From Patescibacteria group bacterium (lineage in GTDB: Bacteria; Patescibacteriota; Minisyncoccia; Phycocordibacterales; Phycocordibacteraceae), in the NCBI GenBank assembly GCA_040388985.1, contig JAZKAU010000001.1, forward strand, positions 59,359 to 123,358: a stretch of 64,000 bases of DNA. Reading direction: 5' to 3'. The notes below the pieces were generated by a model. That model was not told the origin of the DNA. It did not search any database and saw only the letters and a program-made list of their open reading frames with translations. The position numbers and the translations under genes were made by a program. Positions 405-53,302 of this stretch are shown here, piece by piece; the stretch's first letter is position 1; each line of letters begins with the position of its first letter.

Positions 405-475
405 GGGCCTATAGTGAAGCGGTATCACGCATCCATGGCATGGATGAAGTCGGGGTTCGACTCCCCGTAGGTCCA
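405..475 (+). tRNA. tRNA-Ala (anticodon GGC), CCA not encoded
   Basis: Manual cloverleaf: acceptor GGGCCTA/TAGGTCC with a G3:U70 wobble (the Ala identity element), D stem GTGA/TCAC, anticodon stem CATCC/GGATG with loop ATGGCAT (U33, G34 G35 C36, A37), T arm CGGGG-TTCGACT-CCCCG, discriminator A. Confidence 0.8.
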
Positions 476-43186: not shown

Positions 43187-43504
43187 TCTTTGCTTGTTCG
43201 CACTGGCTAATGACTTTAGAACGATAGACTGGGTAAAGGAATACCCGATTCCGGAGATAACCCTGAAGCAGATCTCTACCTGCGGGCAGGATCCTTCCAC
43301 ACCGGGCAGGCAGCTTGCTGTGCAACTACACTTGGATCTTAATAGTAGCTTCGCTCCTTTAAAATCTCGGCGTACACCTTGCGGCTTCTCCTCGAAGACT
43401 CAGAAAATGCTCACAAGGTCTTCGAATCCTGCACGTAAGCGCCCCACGCTTACTCTGGGAAACCAATAAGAAAGCGCCCAAGAGGCGCTTTCTTATTGGT
43501 TTCC

Positions 43505-43530
43505 CTGGCTGTGTGGGACAACGTTGGAAC
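43505..43530 (+). repeat. 26-bp perfect direct repeat, copy 1 (ctggctgtgtgggacaacgttggaac)
   Basis: Identical to 44105-44130, exactly 600 bp apart; both copies lie just after terminator hairpins. Confidence 0.8.
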
Positions 43531-43593: not shown

Positions 43594-43986
43594 TTGTTCC
43601 CACCGTTGGAGGAATGGAAAATGAGACCTACCCCTTGGGCCCTTGCAGCCTTCCGAGTATCCCACCAGCACCCTGAGTCTGATCATCGAGATAGGCTATT
43701 GAAAGATGGGGTGCCCGTGCATCTCATCGATCAGCTCTGCGCAACTCATGCGACCTGCCGGCTCCGACTCCTTCAGATGGAGCTGAAGATCAACTATTCG
43801 GCTATCCCCCATTTCAATAAGTGGATTAGCTGCAAGAAAACCTTTGGCCGTGGCGATGATGAAACCGCTGAATGGTTTGGATTCGTCCGTCGCATTGAAC
43901 AGCTCGAAACGGAGCTTGGCGCAAAGAAACCTCGTGCAGCTCGTCTGCGAGCAAAGCTCAACAAGGTGAGCATGCGACGCGGATAA
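43594..43986 (+). CDS. Hypothetical protein flanked by the 26-bp direct repeats
   Basis: 130-aa ORF with its own terminator (44003-44046). Confidence 0.35.
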   Translation: MFPPLEEWKMRPTPWALAAFRVSHQHPESDHRDRLLKDGVPVHLIDQLCATHATCRLRLLQMELKINYSAIPHFNKWISCKKTFGRGDDETAEWFGFVRRIEQLETELGAKKPRAARLRAKLNKVSMRRG

Positions 43987-44104: not shown

Positions 44105-44130
44105 CTGGCTGTGTGGGACAACGTTGGAAC
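44105..44130 (+). repeat. 26-bp perfect direct repeat, copy 2
   Basis: Identical to 43505-43530. Confidence 0.8.
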
Positions 44131-44134
44131 CAAT

Positions 44135-44530
44135 TTAACTCTCCACCACTACCTTTAGTTTCTGCAATATAGTTTCTATGTTGGTTTCGGAAAATCGCTC
44201 GCTCACGGCACCTTCCTTGACCCATACCCGATAGTCTAACTCACACTTATCCGGTTCAAATGGTTTGAAAATATATACAACGTGATGGTTGTCATCCTTC
44301 TTAGTCATTTCAAACATAAATCCATCTTCAAATGCAGTTATTTCAAATTCGCACCAACCACCACTTTGGTCCTGGCTTCTATATATAGTTCCAAGTTTTA
44401 CTGGATTTTCACTCGCCTCTTCTTTCACCACACCATCTACCCATCTTGGAGTGTTATCGGGATTGGTAGTGAAGTTAAAAACTTCGAAGGCAGGCTTATT
44501 TATAATAATGGTCTTCTTCACACTATTCAT
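44135..44530 (-). CDS. SRPBCC (START/Bet v1-like) family protein
   Basis: 131 aa, ...KPAFEVFNFTTNPDNTPRWVDGV... typical polyketide-cyclase/AHSA1-like pattern. Confidence 0.45.
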   Translation of the reverse strand: MNSVKKTIIINKPAFEVFNFTTNPDNTPRWVDGVVKEEASENPVKLGTIYRSQDQSGGWCEFEITAFEDGFMFEMTKKDDNHHVVYIFKPFEPDKCELDYRVWVKEGAVSERFSETNIETILQKLKVVVES

Positions 44531-44600
44531 GTTCCAAAGTATACCAACTAATGGCTGGGTGAGTTTAGAACTCTTAATTGGAATGAGATTGAGCTAGAAT

Positions 44601-44909
44601 TTATTTCTTTGACTGTCCCCACTGCCATCGAGGTTTTTCTCCTCTCTTGTAGCAGATAAAAACAAGTAGGGCGGTCAGTGCAATGATGGGTAATGCGAAT
44701 GTCAGGAAATTGCCTCCCGAATCAGGATTTCCTGGAATATCTTTTTCTCTCGAGATTACGGAGGTCATGATGAGTGCAACATACGCGAGAAGAACGCACC
44801 ATCCTTGCCATTTTACTGGAATCCAACCCCAGCCATAAAGTTTGGCCTTAAACCAATAGCCTTGTGGATTGTCTCTGAGATATGCAATGTACATTGTCAG
44901 AAAACTCAT
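44601..44909 (-). CDS. Small membrane protein
   Basis: 102 aa, two TM helices, Trp-rich. Confidence 0.35.
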   Translation of the reverse strand: MSFLTMYIAYLRDNPQGYWFKAKLYGWGWIPVKWQGWCVLLAYVALIMTSVISREKDIPGNPDSGGNFLTFALPIIALTALLVFICYKRGEKPRWQWGQSKK

Positions 44910-45149
44910 ACAAATCAGTATAGCTTAAATTGGTTAACTCCGAGGGTACGCGAAGCTTGCTCTCGTTCGTCTCCACAGAAAAGAAAATGCCCCTCAGAAG
45001 GGGCGCTTTCTTATCGTTCCAGTTCCCCGAACATCACGTTAATAACATACCGCTCACATTTAATAGGGAATACATGAGTGGGGTGGCTCAACAGCTGTGT
45101 TAGATTAGGCTTATGGAAAGGTTTTCTGAAGTATAATGAGCAAACCCAC

Positions 45150-45755
45150 ATGAACTCTGTCTCAACATTCATCTTTGATTGTTTCGGTGTGATCTGTCAC
45201 CCTGCCGTACACGGCTGGTATGAAGAAAATAGATTAAGGCAAGGATATTCTGATGAACATTTACCGGCAATTTTAGAACAGTTTGACCTCGGAAAGCTAT
45301 CTGAAGATGAACTTGTTGATTACTTCCTGACATACGAGGGAATTAATTCCACAAAAGAAAAGATTCGTGAGGAGATAGATAGCCACTTGGGTTTAGATAC
45401 TGAATTAGCTTCGACTATTAAGAAGCTAAAAGAAAGTGGTTTCAAGACAGCTCTACTATCAAATGGTAACGAGTCTTTCTTTGAGAGAAAGGTCTATCAA
45501 GAATATCCTCAATTCAAGGATCTATTTGATGAAATTGTCATTTCTTCTTCAGTCGGAATGGTAAAGCCTAACGCTGATATCTATCTGCACACTCTCCAAA
45601 TAGTAGGGTCAAGACCTGAAGAATCATTATTTATTGATGACCGTAAGGTAAATGTAGACGCCGCAACTATGCTCGGTATGAATGGCTATGTATATACGAC
45701 AAGTTCTGCTTTCTCTGACTATTTGAAAGATGTGGGTGTTAGTCTTGGGCGGTAG
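45150..45755 (+). CDS. HAD-superfamily hydrolase
   Basis: Motif I FIFDCFGVI (DxxG), motif IV FIDDRKVNVDAA; start set at MNSVSTF. Confidence 0.6.
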   Translation: MNSVSTFIFDCFGVICHPAVHGWYEENRLRQGYSDEHLPAILEQFDLGKLSEDELVDYFLTYEGINSTKEKIREEIDSHLGLDTELASTIKKLKESGFKTALLSNGNESFFERKVYQEYPQFKDLFDEIVISSSVGMVKPNADIYLHTLQIVGSRPEESLFIDDRKVNVDAATMLGMNGYVYTTSSAFSDYLKDVGVSLGR

Positions 45756-45909
45756 GCCCAGAAGTTATATTCGCCTCAGTCTCTGATGCAAAGCAGCCCT
45801 ATGTTATAAGGCTGTTTTGGTTTGCTCCCCCTCGTGGACAAGTTCAGAACTGCGAATTGGGTTGGTATTAAGAGCGAACTTCAGTTCAGTGGCATTCTCA
45901 GCTTCTTTC

Positions 45910-46473
45910 CTACTGCCATAAGCTCTCAGTAAATTCGGGTAGCTTTTCAGCCAAAACATCCATTTCCCGTATGCCTTGGCGCATAATGGTTGGGGTAATT
46001 TTGAGCTTACGGAACTTAATCATCCCGTCCTCCTTCTTTGTCTTTGTATCTACTCTTACATAGCCCTCTGTATCTAGAGTTTGCCATTTAGCGTGGGCTA
46101 TCTTGTTTCTCAGAGTACTAAGCGTTTCAAGCTGTTTTCTGATTGATGCTAGTTGGCTGCTCTTTAAGACCTTCTTCTTTTGAGCCCAATTAACCATCGG
46201 GAAGGCAAGGTTATAGAAAAGCTCTATTTTTGCCGATACTTCCAAATCCTTAATGATGGTATAGCCCTCGTAATGGGAACGGTCATTGATAAGGTTAGCT
46301 ATTTCTACGTCCAAGCTATGCTCCAAATTGCTAAAGCTAATCAGGAAAGAACCTATGTGGATTGCGTACTTTTCCTCTTGCGCTTCCGTTAGTTCATCGC
46401 CAGCACCGTCATATTGGTCTAGCTCCTCATACTTAACTTCAAGAGCTTTTGGTTGCTTGGCTTTAGCTTTCAT
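45910..46473 (-). CDS. HEPN-like protein (RNxxxH motif), last gene of the five-gene operon
   Basis: ...ETLSTLRNKIAHAKW... Rx4-6H HEPN signature; overlaps the upstream Zn-ribbon ORF by 11 nt. Confidence 0.45.
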   Translation of the reverse strand: MKAKAKQPKALEVKYEELDQYDGAGDELTEAQEEKYAIHIGSFLISFSNLEHSLDVEIANLINDRSHYEGYTIIKDLEVSAKIELFYNLAFPMVNWAQKKKVLKSSQLASIRKQLETLSTLRNKIAHAKWQTLDTEGYVRVDTKTKKEDGMIKFRKLKITPTIMRQGIREMDVLAEKLPEFTESLWQ

Positions 46474-46765
46474 TGCTTTTTACAACCTTTTTGGATACCG
46501 CATCAACAAACAACCTAAAAGCAGGTCTTTTCTCCTTCTCGTAAACAACCTTAACCCCAAGGGTATGACCCTTTGGACAGGAAAGCTCCTTCTTGGAAAT
46601 TGCTACGCTTGGCTCATTTATTCGGTCTACGTACATTCGGCGCAGGTTGCCAGCCCCGTCCTTCTGGTAAGAGCAAATAACGGAACTGCACTTCCTGCAC
46701 GAAATTCTCAAAAGCCGTGAATAACCTCCGCGTGCCTTCTTGTATTTGTCGTTCTTAAGCTTCAT
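46463..46765 (-). CDS. Small zinc-ribbon protein
   Basis: CRKCSSVIC ... SCPKGH (CxxC...CxxxH), 100 aa, basic. Confidence 0.4.
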   Translation of the reverse strand: MKLKNDKYKKARGGYSRLLRISCRKCSSVICSYQKDGAGNLRRMYVDRINEPSVAISKKELSCPKGHTLGVKVVYEKEKRPAFRLFVDAVSKKVVKSNES

Positions 46766-46773
46766 ATCAAAGA

Positions 46774-47154
46774 TTATCTTACGATTTGAGTATCAAACCA
46801 TTGCTCCTGAAAGTGAATAGCTGACATAATTTCATCATCAGTCATTTTAATTCCCTCAGGCACAACTACAAGCTTATCGTCGTCATTATCTTTACGATGT
46901 GCAATAGCTATACAGACACCTTTGGCACGGTTAAGAGGTTCGGCTACTCCTAAGTAATAGGCATCTAGGTCTTCACCATCAGGAGCTTTTATTCCTTCTA
47001 TAAATCCATAGTTGGCTTTATACACAAAGCCGTGTTTAGGGTGCTTAGAACCAAGAGTGCGGTCCATAACAACCTCAACCTCCTTTCCTAAGTATTCTTT
47101 TGCAAGTTCAAAGGATTTAGAGGTTTCCATATAAAAAGTTTCGTACCTGCTCAA
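46774..47154 (-). CDS. Truncated family-I inorganic pyrophosphatase-like protein
   Basis: DRTLGSKHPKHGFVYKANYGFIEGI (compare DRF..YPxNYGFIPxT), DGEDLDAYYL (compare DGDPLDVLV), DDKLVVVPEG (compare DxKLxAVP); lacks the N-terminal ~50 aa of canonical PPase. Confidence 0.5.
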   Translation of the reverse strand: MSRYETFYMETSKSFELAKEYLGKEVEVVMDRTLGSKHPKHGFVYKANYGFIEGIKAPDGEDLDAYYLGVAEPLNRAKGVCIAIAHRKDNDDDKLVVVPEGIKMTDDEIMSAIHFQEQWFDTQIVR

Positions 47155-47662
47155 TAGGTTTTATCTGCATATAGGTCTTGTGATCATCTTCAGCAGATAG
47201 TTCAGCCCTTGTAAGGGAATATCCTTCAGGGATAAAAACAGCGTCCCAGCCATAGCCACCTTCACCAGCAGGTTTCTCAGGAACCGTTCCATCCATACCT
47301 CCTTCAAAATAGCTCTCGGTCTGTCCATCAAAGTAGCCAAAGACACAACGTGCCTTTGCACCCCGTTCCTTACCGTCTAGAAGCCGACACAGGCCTTCAA
47401 GCGAAAGCTCTTCAAGAAACCACTTAATAAACGTGCCAGGCAGTCGTCCCAAAGCCGTAAATTCAAGTGCAACATCCTCAACGAGAACTGGACGCTCCAC
47501 TTGAGCATATGCTTGGCGAAGCTTGTGTTTTACAACCTCTTTCAAATCAAGGGACTGAACCTCGTCCAAATCTACCTTTACGTGTTCTATGGGATGCCCA
47601 AGTAGCTGACCGAGATAGTCAGCTTTCTTCTGGTTGCCAGTGATGAATACAACCTCTTTCAT
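47117..47662 (-). CDS. Ham1/RdgB-like non-canonical NTP pyrophosphatase (ITPase family)
   Basis: VFITGNQKKADYL (compare ATGNxGKxxE), PAGEGGYGWDAVFIPEG (compare GxGGFGYDPIFxP). Confidence 0.65.
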   Translation of the reverse strand: MKEVVFITGNQKKADYLGQLLGHPIEHVKVDLDEVQSLDLKEVVKHKLRQAYAQVERPVLVEDVALEFTALGRLPGTFIKWFLEELSLEGLCRLLDGKERGAKARCVFGYFDGQTESYFEGGMDGTVPEKPAGEGGYGWDAVFIPEGYSLTRAELSAEDDHKTYMQIKPIEQVRNFLYGNL

Positions 47663-47664
47663 AA

Positions 47665-48642
47665 TTACTTGTTGCCTACTTCCTCAAATAGGTCTGTGTC
47701 TATCTTTTCTCCCTTTAAGTACTGCTGAATGCACCAATCGCGCATCTTCACGCGCCAAGCCCAAAAGTCGGGATTGCTAGTAGGGTCTTCTTCAGAACCC
47801 TTATCCTTACCACTAGCCCATATGGTCTTAAGTACTAGAAAATCGTCAGAGTACTCACTTAACTTTGGTAAGTCATATGCAATAGCTACACTATCCAGTT
47901 CTGCTATATAACGTGCAATCTGTTCATTACTAAAGCGATAGCGAACCTTGCCTTCAGGCCACATCCTTCCAAAGAAAACATTTGTAAGTCCGTCATATCC
48001 AACGGGACCGAAGCTTGCAAGCTCAAAGTCAATAACGCCATTAGGCAGAATGTTATACGCGTTCAGGTCTGCCTGTATGTAGCCCCACGGTAATGAAAGG
48101 GAACGTTCTGAAGCACGTTCAATTGCCTCCATAAATGGCTCCCTCATCTCTTCAGAAGGTGGGTTATTTCTGATTACATTTGCAAGGGCAATCATTTGAG
48201 CCATTGCTTCCTTGTTCTGAGGAACAAAATTCTTTGGGTTGAACTGCGCCTCGCAGTATTTCTTTACCGCCTCAGTAAATGCATCAAATGTGGCATCACT
48301 TACTACGCCATTTTCTTTGGTTTCCTCAGTGAATTGGTCTGCGAAATTTCTATCACCAATGCTGCTTTCAATGAAGTAGCTTTCTCCTGTCGGAAGTACG
48401 CCTTCTGCTAGAACTTCAGGGACTGGAAAGCCGCGTTCGTGAAGGTCTCGCGTGATATTAAGCTCACCAGCAATCTCTGCTGCACTGTGTGTACGAAGGT
48501 AAGCTGTCCTATCTGTGTTTACGTAAATATCACCACCCATAAGGCGGTCTTTCAGATAGTTGTACGCTATGCCATTCACAGTTATAGCTTCTTTGCCTTT
48601 TTCCATAGTGGGTTCTGTTTGGAGCTTTTCCATTACATTCAT
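47665..48642 (-). CDS. APH/choline-kinase-like phosphotransferase (protein-kinase-like fold)
   Basis: GYIQADLNAYNILPNGVIDFELASFG (Brenner/catalytic-loop + DFE-like motifs). Confidence 0.55.
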   Translation of the reverse strand: MNVMEKLQTEPTMEKGKEAITVNGIAYNYLKDRLMGGDIYVNTDRTAYLRTHSAAEIAGELNITRDLHERGFPVPEVLAEGVLPTGESYFIESSIGDRNFADQFTEETKENGVVSDATFDAFTEAVKKYCEAQFNPKNFVPQNKEAMAQMIALANVIRNNPPSEEMREPFMEAIERASERSLSLPWGYIQADLNAYNILPNGVIDFELASFGPVGYDGLTNVFFGRMWPEGKVRYRFSNEQIARYIAELDSVAIAYDLPKLSEYSDDFLVLKTIWASGKDKGSEEDPTSNPDFWAWRVKMRDWCIQQYLKGEKIDTDLFEEVGNK

Positions 48643-48653
48643 ATTAGCTTAAA

Positions 48654-49928
48654 TTGCTAGGCATTGTAAACTATTGTAAAGCGATGGAAGACGACACATT
48701 CAACTACTTTAACGTAGATATAAATCTCCTTGCCCTGCACGTATTGCTTGAAGGGGCTTTTAGAGGACAAAGCATTTTTACCCTTGAGCGGTTCCTGAAG
48801 GGCAACTACTGGAAGATTGAAGAAATTGAGGAAGATATAAGAGACACCAACGACTACAGTTCTGTTGAAGACCTTGTAATGCATCAGGTCATAGGAATGG
48901 TTGAAGCTCTTGAACTAGGCACAGTAAAGCGAGTAAGCGTGGCTAATCTCTATGGGCTTACAGAGCAAGTTGCAAGGGAAGCTGTAGAAACTAAGGACGG
49001 TACTGAAGACGACGTTGCTTATTACAGTTCTCTCATCAGTGAGCTATACGACCTGAGGAAAAAAGAAGAGGAACAATTTAGAGAGCGACTTGATGCTGGA
49101 TTGCCTTACTCAGAGGCACGTACCAATAGGGCTGACTTTACCAAAGACGACTTTGGAAGGCATATACAAATTATTTCTGCTATATCAACTCCATTCATAG
49201 AGCTAGAGATAGATTTTGACGAACTTAAGACCCAAGAAGCCGACAAATTAATTCATGACTATATACATTCATTTTCGCAGGATGATTATATTGAAAAGAA
49301 GCCATTCTATAGGCAGAAGCGCTTCTACTTTTCAAAGCAGCTTGAGAACTTCTTTGAGTACATCCAGCGTTTTCCTGAAATAGATGGGTATGTAAACATC
49401 CCTTTCTCTGCGCTTAGTGAGCAAGGATTTGAAGTGGTAAAAGTAATGACCTACTTGGAAAGAGAAGCGCGCTTAAAGGTTAGGAACTGGGACGATATTG
49501 AGCTATGGAATGTTAAGTTTCATAAAACTCCAATTACCCTTGCTTCTTTATTGGGACAGGAAACCAAGACCGAGATTAAAGCGATAGATAAGAGCGAGAT
49601 TAAGCTGAACTTAAGTTTTTCTCCAGAGACAGCAATGATGAGCCTGACAGACCAGACGGGCACAGAATATAAAGTTAGGGTTCAAGGGCAAGTTCAAAAG
49701 GAAGTATTACGTGTGATATTCAAAAACCCCAAAGATACGTATACCGAGTGGAGTTTATACGACATTAGCGAGTTGCTTGGTGGACAGGACGTAAACGAGA
49801 CAGCCGTTAAGAACGCCATCTATCAATTCAATAAGAAGACCAAACTTCACCTCCCACAAGTAGAAAATCTCTTTGAGCTGACCAAACATTCAGCACGACT
49901 CAATCCAAAATACGTAAGTCCAGACTAA
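48654..49928 (+). CDS. Hypothetical protein, possible C-terminal winged-helix
   Basis: 424-aa ORF divergent from the kinase operon; no catalytic motif recognised. Confidence 0.35.
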   Translation: MLGIVNYCKAMEDDTFNYFNVDINLLALHVLLEGAFRGQSIFTLERFLKGNYWKIEEIEEDIRDTNDYSSVEDLVMHQVIGMVEALELGTVKRVSVANLYGLTEQVAREAVETKDGTEDDVAYYSSLISELYDLRKKEEEQFRERLDAGLPYSEARTNRADFTKDDFGRHIQIISAISTPFIELEIDFDELKTQEADKLIHDYIHSFSQDDYIEKKPFYRQKRFYFSKQLENFFEYIQRFPEIDGYVNIPFSALSEQGFEVVKVMTYLEREARLKVRNWDDIELWNVKFHKTPITLASLLGQETKTEIKAIDKSEIKLNLSFSPETAMMSLTDQTGTEYKVRVQGQVQKEVLRVIFKNPKDTYTEWSLYDISELLGGQDVNETAVKNAIYQFNKKTKLHLPQVENLFELTKHSARLNPKYVSPD

Positions 49929-49984
49929 GCAAACTTAAGTAAGGCAACAAATAACCTGTAGGGACAACCTACGGGTTGTTTCTT

Positions 49985-50149
49985 ATGCAGGAAACTATCA
50001 GCCCAGAAAAGCCAAAAGAAAGCTTCCAAATACAGAAGCTCTCACTGGAAGAGCGAGACCGCTTAGTTAGCTTCTTTGCGCTGCTTCTCAAGGTTGATAA
50101 GCGAGTAAATCCTGCACTTTACCAGATTAAGAAAACACAAAATGATTGA
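49985..50149 (+). CDS. Small protein (54 aa) translationally coupled to the Rep gene
   Basis: MQETISPEKPKESFQIQKLSLEERDRLVSFFALLLKVDKRVNPALYQIKKTQND; its stop overlaps the rep start (ATGATTGA). Confidence 0.3.
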   Translation: MQETISPEKPKESFQIQKLSLEERDRLVSFFALLLKVDKRVNPALYQIKKTQND

Positions 50150-51302
50150 TACCGTCTGTCTTCTCATACCGAAAGACAGAATTACCGTAGTTGATATGTC
50201 TCAGCGCGGAGTACCTTCTTGGAACCTGCACTCAAGGACAGACCAATACGATAAATACGTAAAGAACCCTTCAAAACGGGACTTGGATAGTGGGCAGTAC
50301 TTCCCGCGTCTAACTGGCTACAAGCGCAAAAGCTTTGCCCAAGAAGCAAATGTACGGATAGAGTTTTCAGCTCCAAAGCTGCTCTTCCTGAACAATCTTG
50401 ACGAGCTTACGGATAAGGACTTTCCACGGCTCATTGAGACACTTCAAGACCGACTTATGACTATGGGAATTGTTGTATCAAAACCAGTGTTGGCAAATGC
50501 TTCTGTAAGCTCAGTGCACTTCTCAAAGAATATCTTGCTTCAAGACGGTTATACGTCTAACCACCTCATTTCTGAGATGAACAAGATAGACCTTAGGAAG
50601 AGCTTTGATTTTGCACGGACTAGGTACATCAATGACGGTCAAAGCTTGTACGCTCATACCACCGCACATCAGCTAGTTATCTACGACAAAGTAGCTGACT
50701 TGGGCAAGGACAAGAAACGAGCGATAGACAAAGAGCAGACACCTTACCAGCGGAACCTGTTTGGCGAGTTGCTGAAGGATAAAGACGTTAAAGAGATTAT
50801 CCGCTTTGAGGTACGTCTGAACCATAAGCAGAAGCTCAATAAGCTCTTGGAGCAGTTAGGGTACGACAAGAACCCGACCTTCAAGCAGGTATTCCGAAGT
50901 GATGTGAGCAAAGCAGTAGTTATGGACTACTGGAAGAAGTTGATTAAGGAGCGGAACCTAGGACTGTTTTCTATCGCCATTAGCATTAAAGACATATTGA
51001 GGACGTTGTTTATGGCAGACAAAACCCTGAAGCCGAAACAGGCAATCTATCTGCTGGGTCTCTTTATGCTTGCACGTGATGAGAACGGAATGCGACAGCT
51101 AAGAAGTATCGTCTCAAAAAGGTCTCACGATAGAACGTGGTATCGGATAGCAAAGGATATGCAGAACGCCAGTGCACTTATTACTAAGAACAAGCTTAGG
51201 GACTGGGTCTCACAGCTTGATAAAGGTTTGGACGATTATCAGCCGTATAGGGTATCAAGAGATGAAGAAAACAAATCAGACAAAGGCAAGAAAGCTTCTT
51301 AA
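50142..51302 (+). CDS. Replication initiation protein, Rep_trans-like
   Basis: 386 aa; HQLVIYDK... and IIRFEVRL... segments resemble Rep_trans RIE/YDK motifs; element context. Confidence 0.45.
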   Translation: MIDTVCLLIPKDRITVVDMSQRGVPSWNLHSRTDQYDKYVKNPSKRDLDSGQYFPRLTGYKRKSFAQEANVRIEFSAPKLLFLNNLDELTDKDFPRLIETLQDRLMTMGIVVSKPVLANASVSSVHFSKNILLQDGYTSNHLISEMNKIDLRKSFDFARTRYINDGQSLYAHTTAHQLVIYDKVADLGKDKKRAIDKEQTPYQRNLFGELLKDKDVKEIIRFEVRLNHKQKLNKLLEQLGYDKNPTFKQVFRSDVSKAVVMDYWKKLIKERNLGLFSIAISIKDILRTLFMADKTLKPKQAIYLLGLFMLARDENGMRQLRSIVSKRSHDRTWYRIAKDMQNASALITKNKLRDWVSQLDKGLDDYQPYRVSRDEENKSDKGKKAS

Positions 51303-51439
51303 ACGGAACTTCTTTATGGAAGCTCTCGTAGTGGAGTTGGATGCTGAAAAGAAGTGGAAGAGGGCAAAGAAAGCACAGAAGAAAGGACGGACGCTGTCCA
51401 CTTAGTAGGTTTGTTATGTAAAGAATTGTAAAGTAATAT

Positions 51440-51619
51440 ATGACTATGCAAAAAGAGTTTTACACGGCGCAGGAGCTAGCCGATAAGCTTCAAGTTAATG
51501 TTATGACTATCTACCGCTATATTGGCGCAGGTAAGCTTAAGGCGCATAAAATTGGAAAGTCGTTCCGTATCCCAAGGGCTACTTTTGAGAAGTTCCTTGA
51601 AGCCACTAAAACTAAGTAG
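51440..51619 (+). CDS. xis: Excisionase-family HTH DNA-binding protein (59 aa)
   Basis: YTAQELADKLQVNVMTIYRYIGAGKLKAHKIGKSFRIPRATFEKFLE matches the excisionase-family DNA-binding domain pattern; not in the track (<60 aa). Confidence 0.6.
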   Translation: MTMQKEFYTAQELADKLQVNVMTIYRYIGAGKLKAHKIGKSFRIPRATFEKFLEATKTK

Positions 51620-51622
51620 CTT

Positions 51623-52096
51623 ATGAAAACACTTACAGAATTGAACAGCAAATGGTGGTACCGACTACTGAAGGTACTCTATATAATCCTAGCTCTGATT
51701 ATTCTAGGAGTATCTATAGCACTTATAGTCGTATCAAATGCGCCAGAGTTTGATAACAAAGCATCGTATGTGCAATGTGATGATGGACGTACTTTTCCTG
51801 TAGATAAAATAGGGATGTATAGCGATTTTGTTGATAGCTATAACGATAGAAACTTCCGCACGTGGTGTGCAACCACTCTAGTAGAAGAAAACGGTGTACA
51901 AAAACTGAAGCCAATAAATGGGTTCGTGCCAGACGAAAAGAACTTTACTTTTGTGGCTAAAGAAACTGCACGCAACTGGATGGGCACTATAGGGTATTCG
52001 GTTATTGCTCTTGTTGTAGTGCTACTACTATCCGAGCTTCTTAGGAGGATGTTCTACTACATAACTCTGGGTTCCATACGTCCTAAACGGCAATGA
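51623..52096 (+). CDS. Membrane protein, unknown function
   Basis: 157 aa, N- and C-terminal TM helices. Confidence 0.35.
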   Translation: MKTLTELNSKWWYRLLKVLYIILALIILGVSIALIVVSNAPEFDNKASYVQCDDGRTFPVDKIGMYSDFVDSYNDRNFRTWCATTLVEENGVQKLKPINGFVPDEKNFTFVAKETARNWMGTIGYSVIALVVVLLLSELLRRMFYYITLGSIRPKRQ

Positions 52097-52907
52097 AAGC
52101 AGTAAATGTCTCAAGAGTATCAACGGAAGAACAAAAAGAAGCTGGTAATTCGCTACCCGCTCAGTTTGAGCGCATAGACAGCTACTGCAAGAATAAGTCC
52201 TTTGATGTAATTGAGACATTTAGCTTTGACGAAAGTGCTTATAAAGAGAAGCGAGACGAATTTGATAAGCTCCTTGAATTTGTTCAAGAAGCCGCAAAGA
52301 AGGAAAAGATAGCGGTTTGCTTTGATAAGGTAGACCGTTTGTCTAGGAGTGTCTTTGACACTCGCGTCGCCACTCTCTATGAAATGGCTGTTGCTGACAG
52401 GATAGAACTGCACTTCGTTTCAGAAGGACAGGTCATCAATAACAAAATGTCAGCCGTTGAGAAGTTTCAGTTCGGAATGAGCTTAGGTCTAGCAAAGTAT
52501 TACTCGGACGCGATTGGCGATAACGTCAGACGTGCCTTTGAGCAAAAGCGCAGGAATGGAGAATTACTAAGGACATATATGACAAAAAGCATCAGGACTA
52601 CCACGACCAGCTTCAGGTCTTGGAAATTGAAATGTCAGAACACAGGAAAGCAGATTATGACTACCAAACCACGGTAGCTACAGTGCTTTCTGTCGCTCGC
52701 AGGGCAAAGCAAATCTTTGAAAGTTCTGAAGCTGCAGAAAAACGAGCGTTCCTGAACTACCTACTTCAGAACCCGAGTGTAAACGGAAAAAAGCTATATT
52801 TTTCAATAGCTTCTCCGTTCAATCTAGTCCTAGAACTAGCTGATAACCCTAACTGGCTCCGCGGGCAGGATTCGAACCTGCGACCAAGTCGTTACACATT
52901 ATCCTAA
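52093..52907 (+). pseudogene. Serine recombinase (resolvase catalytic domain) with a frameshift near 52545-52560; the downstream frame reads into tRNA-Asn
   Basis: VSRVSTEEQ catalytic Ser motif, DRLSRS; ORF 52093..52677 and ORF 52620..52907 are in different frames and rejoin as ...FEQKRRNGEW/RITKD...; C-terminal ...LRGQDSNLRPS is a translation of the tRNA T-arm. Confidence 0.55.
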
Positions 52908-53164
52908 AGTTTCCTAAAGGGGTGGACTATATCATCATCGGGTCTCGATGCGAGGCGCTTCCGATCCGCCAACTGGCGGACAGTACTCCCTTACGGGATA
53001 GTCTCTACACCTTCCAAGTCTTATCGCTAGATAAATCTTGGCTTGGCTCGGGATTGCCCTTGCTTTCGCAATAGGGTTTCCCCGAATTCACCTCGTTTGC
53101 AACCAGGATTCCTCCTGGAGGCTGCCATTGACAGCGACCTGCTCTACCACTGAGCTACCGCGGA
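52854..53164 (-). tRNA. tRNA-Asn (GUU) interrupted by a 236-nt group I intron between anticodon-loop positions 35 and 36; CCA encoded
   Basis: 5' exon TCCGCGGTAGCTCAGTGGTAGAGCAGGTCGCTGT (53164-53131), 3' exon TAACGACTTGGTCGCAGGTTCGAATCCTGCCCGCGGAGCCA (52894-52854); U1:A72 and G73 as in bacterial tRNA-Asn; loop CUGUUAA. Confidence 0.7.
52895..53130 (-). ncRNA. Group I intron (IC3-like, tRNA-intron type)
   Basis: P1: exon GCUGU pairs with intron GCAGC (U.G at the splice site); core GGUGAAUUCGGGGAAACCCUA...CCCGAGCCAAGCC...AAGGUGUAGAGACUA closely resembles Azoarcus tRNA-Ile and cyanobacterial tRNA-Leu introns; ends in omega-G. Confidence 0.7.
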
Positions 53165-53302
53165 ATATTCTGTATGTCTTTGAACGACTCCCGGGGAAAC
53201 CGGGAGTTCGCTTATTCTAGGCCGAAACCTGCATTTGGGCAACCATTGGGGATAGCTCTGGTGCGGTACTATAGGGATATTAGCCGGTAACCTCTTCTGC
53301 CC

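Follow-up and report, generated by a model that had tools for sequence, protein, structure and literature searches.

What is encoded between positions 52854 and 53164 of the window (the whole 64-kb stretch of DNA analysed here), and where are its exon boundaries? Neither ARAGORN in its default mode nor the tRNA model of Rfam detected the gene, as one would expect of an interrupted tRNA, and ARAGORN with introns allowed returned tRNA-Thr(tgt) i(33,236). A sequence-only reading had instead proposed that a 236-nt group I intron separates positions 35 and 36 of a tRNA-Asn(GUU). Joining 53164-53131 to 52894-52854 in silico gave a canonical 75-nt cloverleaf with the loop CUGUUAA, U1:A72, G73 and CCA, just as that reading had described, and ARAGORN called the spliced sequence tRNA-Asn(gtt). 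The combination of G73 and U1:A72 is typical of bacterial tRNA-Asn, for instance that of E. coli. A scan with Rfam RF00028 (Intron_gpI) matched the intron at 70.1 bits, above the gathering score of 50 (E = 9.4e-16); the match spans 53142-52903 and is full-length (model positions 1-253 of 253). The motifs AAUUCGGGGAAACC, CCCGAGCCAAGCC and AAGGUGUAGAGACUA occur in the intron. With the splice, the Rfam match, the relatives and the alignment all bearing the proposal out, we are highly confident that the locus encodes the tRNA-Asn(GUU) of a patescibacterium (Parcubacteria/Paceibacteria) and is split at 35/36 by a 236-nt IA-type group I intron without a homing endonuclease. A promoter-like site lies upstream of the tRNA; the consensus scan found one such site where 0.6 were expected.

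Features of the tRNA-Asn locus and its surroundings in the window, with pairing and covariation as counted over 36 aligned homologues
Feature	Position	Strand	Details
Low-GC block, putative integrated element	44105..52853		8.7 kb; GC ~0.42 vs ~0.55; abuts tRNA 3' end; left border set by composition only
Decayed large serine recombinase gene	52093..52850	plus	convergent with tRNA; catalytic domain in ORF 52093-52677
tRNA-Asn 3' exon	52854..52894	minus	41 nt; UAACGAC...GGAGCCA; U36 to A72, G73, encoded CCA
Group I intron	52895..53130	minus	236 nt; no ORF; starts CAAUGGCAGC, ends ...AUAAUGUG
P9.0 + P9 + omega-G	52895..52923	minus	P9.0: A-C 52923-22 with G-U 52897-96, 100% paired, one covarying pair; P9 hairpin 52920-52903, 82% paired, 6/7 pairs covary
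J8/7 AUGAUA + P7 3' strand UAGUCC	52924..52935	minus	GAUAUAGUCC nearly invariant
P8 hairpin CAUCG-AGACC-CGAUG	52936..52950	minus	95% paired, 3/4 counted pairs covary
P3 3' strand CGCCUCG	52951..52957	minus	from the 36-sequence alignment
P7.2 hairpin	52961..52983	minus	core UCCGCC-AGUU-GGCGGA 52980-52965; 6/6 pairs covary, 88% paired
P7.1 hairpin UCCC-GUAA-GGGA	52987..52998	minus	97.9% paired, 2 pairs with compensatory change; outer pairs fixed by seeding pattern
P7 5' strand G-A(bulge)-GACUA	52999..53005	minus	99.5% paired, invariant in 36 sequences; fixed by seeding pattern
P6 / P6a / P6b	53009..53047	minus	P6 98% paired; P6a 89%, 5/5 covary; P6b from single-sequence fold
P4 around P5	53048..53085	minus	P4 53085-53080 / 53053-48, 97% paired, 5/6 pairs covary; P5 53076-53057, GAAA loop, 83% paired
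P3 5' strand CGAGGUG	53089..53095	minus	partner 52951-52957; 98.4% paired, compensatory changes 4/7
P2 hairpin CCAGGA-GGAA-UCCUGG	53103..53118	minus	GNRA loop; 6/6 pairs covary, 96% paired
P1	53121..53135	minus	exon GCUGU 53135-53131 + guide GCAGC 53125-53121; loop CAAUG
tRNA-Asn 5' exon	53131..53164	minus	34 nt; tRNA positions 1-35; 3' end = G34 U35; ends ...GGUCGCUGU
Promoter-like site TTGCCC-17-TAGAAT	53214..53242	minus	~50 nt upstream of tRNA; weak candidate from consensus scan

The host was identified from the genes next to the tRNA. The best relatives of Fmt come from metagenome-assembled genomes of Parcubacteria (73% identity) and Paceibacterota (71%), and the neighbourhood mreB-murA-priA-def-fmt-hpf-grx-tRNA-Asn is conserved; together these place the host, as judged from sequence, in the Parcubacteria/Paceibacteria lineage of the Patescibacteria. 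At the same syntenic site, two relatives (L002 and L004) carry an intron-less tRNA-Asn in which CUGUUAA is unbroken, and their tRNA aligns without gaps to the 5' exon. Two others (L005 and L008) have an intron-containing tRNA-Asn there, and the L005 intron also starts with CAAUGGCAGC. This syntenic series, with the intron (window, L005, L008) and without it (L002, L004), could be used to follow gain and loss in the absence of a homing endonuclease.

The fold of the intron was examined in an alignment of 36 homologues, 30 of which were gathered with a search pattern; since this pattern fixes the outer pairs of P7.1 as well as P7, the two helices count for less as independent evidence. A 13-helix structure including the P3/P7 pseudoknot was 91.9% paired over the 36 sequences, with compensatory changes at 45 of its 69 pairs, whereas control structures slid by 1-3 columns were 35-43% paired. 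The single-sequence thermodynamic fold (z = -3.99) gave P2-P6, P7.1, P7.2, P3, P8 and P9 in its centroid. The resulting architecture is P1-P2-P3-P4-P5-P6/6a/6b-P7-P7.1-P7.2-P3'-P8-P7'-P9.0-P9. The nearly invariant J8/7-P7' segment agrees with the Rfam consensus GAUAUAGUC, and P9 has a GAAA loop and two central U.U mismatches. By likeness to Tetrahymena G264-C311, we take 53003 G with 52925 C to be the guanosine-binding pair. A P10 helix between the 3'-exon UA and the P1-loop UG is not claimed: it would comprise at most 2 bp and is 33% paired across the homologues.

Could the gene be a tRNA-Thr(UGU) after all, with an intron of the same length moved by 2 nt to 33/34 (exons ...GCU | UGUAACG...)? 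Intron-aware ARAGORN reads it so, and the rule that a U precedes and a G ends the intron fits this boundary too when taken alone, with U33 before it and G52897 at the end of that intron. The 2-nt ambiguity arises from the ...GUG 3' end of the intron, which is conserved because of P9.0 pairing. However, the U at the Thr site, U33, pairs with A and not G in 36/36 homologues; G34 pairs with C in all 36 as well, and the sole wobble in P1 is U35.G (53131 with 53125), which is U.G in 36/36. The pairing of GCUGU with GCAGC around a splice-site U.G and the terminal G, both part of the sequence-only reading, are thus borne out; the omega-G is at 52895, and the junction G|UAA is likewise the same in 36/36. 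The intron-less relatives point the same way: against the L004 tRNA-Asn the Asn splice has 54/64 identical positions and the Thr splice 52/64, against that of L002 31/42 and 29/42, and all of these differences fall in the anticodon loop. It is also established that U1:A72 with G73 is as a rule a feature of bacterial tRNA-Asn and not of tRNA-Thr. Finally, the same Thr mis-call has been published for a homologue whose spliced product, when sequenced, showed excision at 35/36 (PMC13011429). The P1 wobble, the intron-less relatives and the 36-homologue fold support the 35/36 boundary; the alternative boundary was looked at and rejected, tRNA-Asn(GUU) stands, and we regard a tRNA-Thr here as extremely improbable.

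As for the subgroup of the intron, the core had been matched to IC3 tRNA introns such as those of Azoarcus tRNA-Ile and cyanobacterial tRNA-Leu, and as a likeness of motifs this stands: the P3-P4, P4'-P6 and J6/7-P7 motifs hardly differ from those in tRNA introns labelled IC3 (Azoarcus Ile, Nostoc/Anabaena Leu(UAA), fMet, Arg), including an Acidobacteriota Ile2 intron with aaattcggggaagcc, tcccgagccaag and aaggtgtagagact, and GNRA loops on P2, P5 and P9 are also shared with them. As an assignment it does not hold. The IC3-like P3-P7 core motifs are present but common to IA-labelled tRNA introns, and are therefore non-discriminating. Between P7 and P3' of the window intron lie ~40 nt that form two hairpins, P7.1 and P7.2, which in this position are the hallmark of subgroup IA in the Michel and Westhof classification; because of them the IC3 label is unsupported. 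The two strands of P7 are accordingly 69 nt apart, from 5' strand to 3' strand, compared with 32 nt in Ile2 and 39 nt in Nostoc Leu, and in both of these IC3 introns P3' directly follows P7. P7.1 and P7.2 are backed by covariation and independently by the single-sequence fold, and the P7/P7.1 motif recurs widely among viral-contig group I introns. Global pairwise identity was not used for the subgroup, since the Nostoc Leu intron scores as high as true relatives. The insertion site differs as well, IC3 tRNA introns being inserted at 33/34, 34/35 or 36/37 (PMC13011429). In the published classification with subgroup covariance models, 25/28 introns at 35/36 fell in IA and zero Patescibacteria tRNA introns were assigned to IC (PMC13011429), and the available part of a published table labels tRNA-Asn 35/36 introns of other phyla IA1/IA2. 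The hairpins and the published classification of the family suggest that the window intron is IA-type, and membership of IC3 is very unlikely.

How far does this intron depart from those already described? The sequence-only reading had called a tRNA-Asn host with a 35/36 insertion unusual, a view that is out of date. In its available text, the tFind survey of Williams 2020 (10.1101/2020.01.27.920355) raised the number of bacterial tRNA cases with introns from the classical four to 21; its class Asn.4Ug is Asn split at 35/36, sometimes mis-scored as Thr.2Ug according to Nakagawa et al. (PMC13011429). That survey is, in the same text, a computational catalogue without structural or experimental analysis. 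Nakagawa, Amikura, Omae and Suzuki (mSystems 2026; PMC13011429; preprint 10.1101/2025.07.03.662931) reported group I introns at tRNA-Asn(GUU) 35/36 in Patescibacteria, 15 of them in 95 complete genomes; this is the commonest tRNA intron of the phylum. In their in vitro assays two homologues, from GCA_016700035.1 (Asn) and GCA_001029755.1 (Asp), spliced precisely, and a terminal G-to-C mutant lost exon ligation (PMC13011429). One motif scan of metagenomes added at least 53 more cases in tRNA-Asn. The arrangement, in vitro splicing included, was thus published between 2020 and 2026, and the window holds a further example of it.

The window intron resembles this Asn family in phylum, host tRNA, site (CUGU|...G|UAA), size class, homologous core and lack of an endonuclease gene, and even in the ARAGORN mis-call of Thr(UGU) at 33/34. 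The window intron and the published Asn introns fit one structure-consistent alignment. With most of the published ones the window intron has 160-180 bases out of 236 in common (one outlier, 129): 180/236 with GCA_026016225.1 and 177/236 with GCA_016699245.1, both Paceibacteria, and 160/236 with the in vitro-validated GCA_016700035.1. Its sequence is identical to none in Nakagawa Table S3. It has a separate P7.1 (GUAA loop) and P7.2 where a single long hairpin stands in the validated Saccharimonadia intron and, in contrast to the published family, it adjoins a decayed serine-recombinase element. The locus adds one more sequence to a documented intron family, and by itself its tRNA-Asn intron opens no new question. 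It does illustrate how an essential tRNA is missed by default tools or misnamed Thr(UGU) by intron-aware ARAGORN, a mis-annotation that distorts tRNA-based completeness estimates for Patescibacteria, as the literature already points out.

The window intron is probably catalytic, given that homologous introns excise themselves with precision at 35/36 in vitro. A 311-nt precursor would be transcribed from the gene, the P3-P9 core would fold, and P1 would form between the exon GCUGU and the internal guide GCAGC. A free guanosine held at the P7 G-C pair would then attack the bond 3' of U35, the base that forms the U.G wobble. The terminal G (52895), placed by P9.0, would take over from the free guanosine, and the 3'-OH of U35 would attack the bond after it, yielding joined exons in the form of the 75-nt tRNA with the loop CUGUUAA. 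One could object that this is a dead copy of the gene whose intron no longer splices, the cell relying on another tRNA-Asn gene: P9 contains two U.U mismatches, P10 is weak, a decayed mobile element adjoins, and the data cover 64 kb of the genome only. Against this, no core helix is broken, the U.G pair, J8/7, the G-C pair of P7 and the terminal G are all in place, and the exons of the tRNA fold into a perfect cloverleaf. The UU-containing P9 sequence (CCUUUAGG...CUUUAGG) is also found in a published Patescibacteria Tyr intron, GCA_016699995.1. A dead copy is in our judgement highly improbable, and a splicing-competent tRNA-Asn intron is the preferred reading.

The P7-P7.1 motif AGAGACUAUCC-N6-GGAGUA was found on at least 120 viral (IMG/VR) contigs, and sampled matches scored as Intron_gpI at 58-92 bits. 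As in the window intron, P7-P7.1 is followed there by a P7.2 hairpin, P3', P8 and GAUAUAGUCC. A tRNA-Asn context was seen in 0/120 of the viral motif matches and, unlike the window intron, many of these introns carry ORFs, with several introns per contig, so they presumably sit in protein-coding genes. T4 and other phages are the classical source of subgroup IA introns. A blastn search against cultured phage genomes gave short partial matches only. The P7.1/P7.2 arrangement common to the window intron and the viral-contig introns is a hint of exchange between phages and the tRNA genes of Patescibacteria.

The tRNA had also been described as the integration site of a genomic island. This is plausible, the comparative and circumstantial support being the composition of the adjoining low-GC block, the recombinase remnant next to the tRNA and the other loci; an att repeat and an empty site were not shown. 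The recombinase gene is decayed: its C-terminal remnant lies in another frame from ~52550 on, with ~235 codons missing in between. The product matched Pfam Resolvase (5.5e-21) and the phrog_95 integrase (profile positions 88-238 of 651), and BLASTP against the 588-aa recombinase of L054 aligned residues 10-157 of the latter at 8e-20 and residues 393-481 at 2e-6. PHROGs and Pfam gave no matches for the unknown ORFs of the block, and on 43.1-44.2 kb Rfam at its E-value threshold gave nothing but spurious hairpin matches. A search for a direct repeat of the tRNA 3' end at the far border of the block yielded none that was significant (best score 22-25, null maximum 23). A 26-nt repeat at 44105 was considered as att and rejected, its 10/13 likeness to the antisense tRNA end being within chance by estimate. 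Integration is still plausible in the absence of such a repeat, as a very short common core is enough for serine recombinases. An empty site was not found in the relatives: the L002 and L004 contigs end inside the tRNA and the DNA downstream in L005 is unrelated.

Intact homologues of the recombinase occupy the same place in other loci. We tentatively suggest, as a possibility somewhat short of an even chance, that integrative elements of Patescibacteria with large serine recombinases use the 3' end of tRNA-Asn, often intron-bearing, as their attachment site, with the recombinase frame entering the antisense 3' exon, and that the window holds a decayed member of this group. Classically, tRNA-targeting islands are put in place by tyrosine integrases, according to the available part of the Islander work; a recurrent pairing of serine recombinases with a tRNA in Patescibacteria, if true, would for this reason be a modest novelty. 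What the window adds here is the association of tRNA-Asn with serine-recombinase elements.

The tRNA-Asn(GUU) gene is split between positions 35 and 36 by a 236-nt group I intron, a reading of the sequence alone that is supported by the spliced cloverleaf, the Rfam match, the P1 wobble and intron-less orthologues. The split gene was not found in the window by default ARAGORN. Joining the exons in silico gave 75 nt that ARAGORN drew as a canonical cloverleaf, tRNA-Asn(gtt), whose loop is CTGTTAA and which carries the pair U1:A72, the discriminator G73 and an encoded CCA. All positions, lengths and motifs first described for the gene proved correct. An Rfam scan of the whole window at gathering thresholds yielded two matches, a tRNA-Ala and Intron_gpI, the latter covering positions 1-253 of the 253-position model (score 70.1 bits, threshold 50 bits; E 9.4e-16), which bears out a group I intron. 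No ORF lies in the intron, whose length could not accommodate an endonuclease gene. A GC-rich hairpin between a promoter-like site and the tRNA-Asn 5' end received a terminator-like score for the plus strand, which is antisense to the tRNA.

Features of the split tRNA-Asn gene, the adjoining low-GC block and its left edge
Feature	Position	Strand	Remarks
tRNA-Asn 5' exon	53164-53131	minus	reads TCCGCGGTAGCTCAGTGGTAGAGCAGGTCGCTGT
Group I intron	53130-52895	minus	236 nt; begins CAATGGCAGC, ends GGATAATGTG
tRNA-Asn 3' exon	52894-52854	minus	reads TAACGACTTGGTCGCAGGTTCGAATCCTGCCCGCGGAGCCA
Intron_gpI match (Rfam)	53142-52903	minus	
tRNA-Ala match (Rfam)	405-475		
GC-rich hairpin	53180-53211		9 bp, GACTCCCGG-GGAAA-CCGGGAGTT
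ORF adjoining tRNA-Asn	52093-52677	plus	convergent with the tRNA
Recombinase gene, both frames	52093-52907	plus	
Accessory-looking block genes			HAD hydrolase, APH-family kinase, Ham1, pyrophosphatase-like protein
Further block genes			two large ORFs without family match
Further block gene			small HTH_17 gene
Perfect 26-nt direct repeat	43505-43530 and 44105-44130		CTGGCTGTGTGGGACAACGTTGGAAC; copies 600 nt apart
ORF bracketed by the repeat	43594-43986		130 codons, no family match
tRNA-like fragments	43282-43292, 43421-43435		GCGGGCAGGAT and TTCGAATCCTGCACG
Perfect 22-bp hairpin	43457-43505		

When introns were allowed, ARAGORN assigned the precursor to tRNA-Thr(tgt), with a 236-nt intron from position 33. 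UGU/GUG is repeated at both intron ends, so that a 2-nt shift also yields a 7-nt loop (CUUGUAA). An alternative boundary with a different anticodon, foreseen in the sequence-only reading, does therefore arise, but four results decide for tRNA-Asn 35/36 and led us to reject tRNA-Thr(UGU) 33/34. P1, formed by exon GCUGU and intron GCAGC, has its sole U.G wobble at U35, and U33 forms a pair with A; both pairs are present in 36/36 aligned homologues. Uninterrupted tRNA-Asn genes (...CTGTTAA...) occupy the syntenic site in the related loci L002 (12010-12051) and L004 (3014-3077); the Asn splice is colinear with both and identical to L004 at 54/64 positions, as against 52/64 for the Thr splice, only the loop differing. 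Bacterial tRNA-Asn, for example that of E. coli, typically has the U1:A72 pair and G73. Finally, the sequenced ligation product of a homologous intron showed excision at 35/36 (Nakagawa et al., mSystems 2026, PMC13011429). A 2-bp P9.0, in which A-C after P7 pairs with G-U before the terminal G, accounts for the conserved ...GUG at the intron 3' end; among the aligned homologues this helix is 100% paired, with one covarying pair.

The intron had initially been placed in subgroup IC3 on the basis of its core motifs. The likeness is factually right, since an IC3-labelled Ile2 intron in a published table bears aaattcggggaagcc, tcccgagccaag and aaggtgtagagact; the assignment itself is contradicted by the region between P7 and P3'. 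The P7 strands are 69 nt apart in the window, as against 32 and 39 nt in two IC3 introns compared. In those two, P3' directly follows P7, whereas the window intron has an extra 40 nt there, folding as P7.1 (UCCC-GUAA-GGGA) and P7.2 (UCCGCC-AGUU-GGCGGA), two hairpins backed by the structural analysis below. The Michel-Westhof scheme takes helices at this place as the defining mark of subgroup IA. Covariance models placed 25/28 introns at 35/36 in IA and no Patescibacteria tRNA intron in IC, and Asn 35/36 introns of Bipolaricaulota, Cyanobacteriota and Nitrospirota are labelled IA1/IA2 (Nakagawa et al., PMC13011429). By architecture and published family classification, the window intron is not IC3.

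Helices P1, P2, P3, P4, P5, P6/6a/6b, P7, P7.1, P7.2, P8, P9.0 and P9 were assigned by hand, and pairs were counted on a MAFFT alignment of 36 introns: the window intron, two from syntenic loci, three from the literature and 30 from metagenomes. The last were retrieved with a pattern fixing P7 and the outer P7.1 pairs, a caveat for these helices. With P7 treated as a pseudoknot, 91.9% of cells were standard pairs and 45/69 pairs showed changes on both sides, values reached by 0/500 shuffles; pairing fell to 35-43% when the 3' partners were shifted by 1-3 columns. Covariation was found at most or all pairs of P2, P4, P6a, P7.2, P8 and P9, and the invariance of P7 and most of P1 makes covariation neutral towards these helices. 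An independent single-sequence fold gave a centroid with exactly P2-P6b, P7.1, P7.2, P3, P8 and P9 (z = -3.99). From this structure and experiments on homologues we infer the standard self-splicing mechanism: guanosine would attack after U35, the U of the P1 U.G pair, and the exons would then be ligated after the terminal G52895. Two representatives of the Patescibacteria tRNA introns self-splice precisely in vitro, and exon ligation fails in a terminal G-to-C mutant (PMC13011429).

The closest matches of the neighbouring formyltransferase come from a 'Parcubacteria group bacterium' (73% identity) and a 'Candidatus Paceibacterota bacterium' (71%), with the next relatives in Patescibacteria and Kaiserbacteria at 53-59%, indicating that the window is from a Patescibacterium. 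The gene order mreB-murA-priA-def-fmt-hpf-grx-tRNA is kept in related genomes. At the syntenic tRNA-Asn, the intron is absent from L002 and L004 and present in L005 (214 nt, same start CAATGGCAGC) and in the Saccharibacteria genome L008 (287 nt). The L002 and L004 contigs stop inside their intron-less tRNA-Asn genes; strain-variable DNA (islands) there could have broken the assembly. Searching metagenomes for the P7-P7.1 motif (AGAGACTATCCNNNNNNGGAGTA) gave at least 120 contigs. Among the matches listed, at least 53 contigs clearly place it in tRNA-Asn (stem-CTGT / ... G / TAA-stem), a few have it in Phe, Tyr or His genes, and the remainder are cut by contig ends. The motif occurs in tRNA-Phe(GAA) at 33/34 (loci L042, L055, L059, L065, L068, L086, L097 and L119) and in a tRNA-Tyr (L071), and these introns are, judging from sequence, of the same lineage as the window intron. 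The two ARAGORN His calls (L072, L110) have no U/G-compatible boundary as called, and by direct pattern search L110 fits the tRNA-Asn 35/36 boundaries.

The host tRNA and insertion position, at first considered unusual, are no longer so, this kind having been published between 2020 and 2026. Williams raised the number of bacterial tRNA cases with introns from the classical four to 21 (bioRxiv 2020, 10.1101/2020.01.27.920355), which according to Nakagawa et al. include a class 'Asn.4Ug', sometimes mis-scored 'Thr.2Ug'. The latter study (preprint July 2025) describes 22 intron-bearing tRNA genes in 95 complete Patescibacteria genomes, 15 of them tRNA-Asn(GUU) at 35/36, often called Thr(UGU) 33/34 by ARAGORN and tFind; most of the introns lack endonuclease genes (PMC13011429). 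Its Table S3 introns are clearly homologous to the window intron, most Asn introns having 160 to 180 of 236 bases in common with it, and none of those listed is identical; that of GCA_026016225.1 ends gtccacccctagtggaaacactaggataatgtgTAA, whereas the window intron ends gtccacccctttaggaaactttaggataatgtgTAA. The window intron thus adds another member to an already described family. What is mildly new is confined to recurrent serine-recombinase elements at tRNA-Asn and a P7.1/P7.2 architecture common with viral-contig introns.

GC content falls from ~0.55 to ~0.42 from roughly 44.1 kb to the tRNA 3' end at 52.85 kb. In the ORF adjoining the tRNA, residues 7-157 form a serine-recombinase catalytic domain (Pfam Resolvase, 5.5e-21), equivalent to positions 88-238 of a 651-position PHROG 'integrase' profile. 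Against the 588-aa large serine recombinase of metagenome locus L054, this ORF aligns with residues 10-157 (E 8e-20), and a second frame, which extends to 52907, aligns with residues 393-481 (E 2e-6). About 235 internal codons (recombinase and zinc-ribbon domains) are gone and the gene is frameshifted, which marks it as a pseudogene. In at least six metagenome loci (L054, 2129-3895; L144, 4653-6338; L082, L088, L123, L135), an intact homologue faces an intron-bearing tRNA-Asn gene in convergent orientation and meets or overlaps its 3' end; the two homologues examined over their whole length have 561-588 aa. The L054 frame extends through the antisense tRNA-Asn 3' exon. Locus L096 repeats 24 nt of its tRNA-Asn 3' end (TCCTACCCGCGGAGCTTGTTAACA) in direct orientation ~190 nt downstream of the gene, in a stretch ~150-350 nt past the intron motif (11030). 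Between the two repeat copies the tRNA 3' end occurs once more, inverted and interrupted, and the whole resembles an att-site scar. Together, the six loci and the L096 repeat point to the tRNA-Asn 3' end as a recurrent target. The proposal that the tRNA served as the island integration site in the window is thus well supported by context, namely the low-GC block, the recombinase remnant and its recurrent homologues, but not demonstrated, as no significant repeat of the tRNA-Asn end was detected at the far border and no empty site among the relatives compared (L002, L004, L005).

The second copy of the 26-nt repeat lies exactly at the GC drop, the left edge of the block. Its first 13 nt match the antisense tRNA-Asn 3' end at 10/13, not significant alone. 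The tRNA-like fragments are just upstream of the 22-bp hairpin; TTCGAATCCTGCACG resembles a T-arm and is inverted with respect to the tRNA-Asn gene. They score 22-25, which is marginal given a null maximum of 23, and the region has no Rfam match.

The P7-P7.1 motif was also found in at least 120 IMG/VR viral contigs (L146-L265), where it marks Rfam-confirmed group I introns, none in a tRNA-Asn context among the viral matches listed. Several introns may share a contig (L147: 1803-2039, 2946-3160, 9809-10102, 10859-11104; L149: 10527-10848, 11558-11826), and some have ORFs extending into the P6/P7 region. IA introns are classically associated with phages, and the occurrence of the motif in viral contigs agrees with this association.
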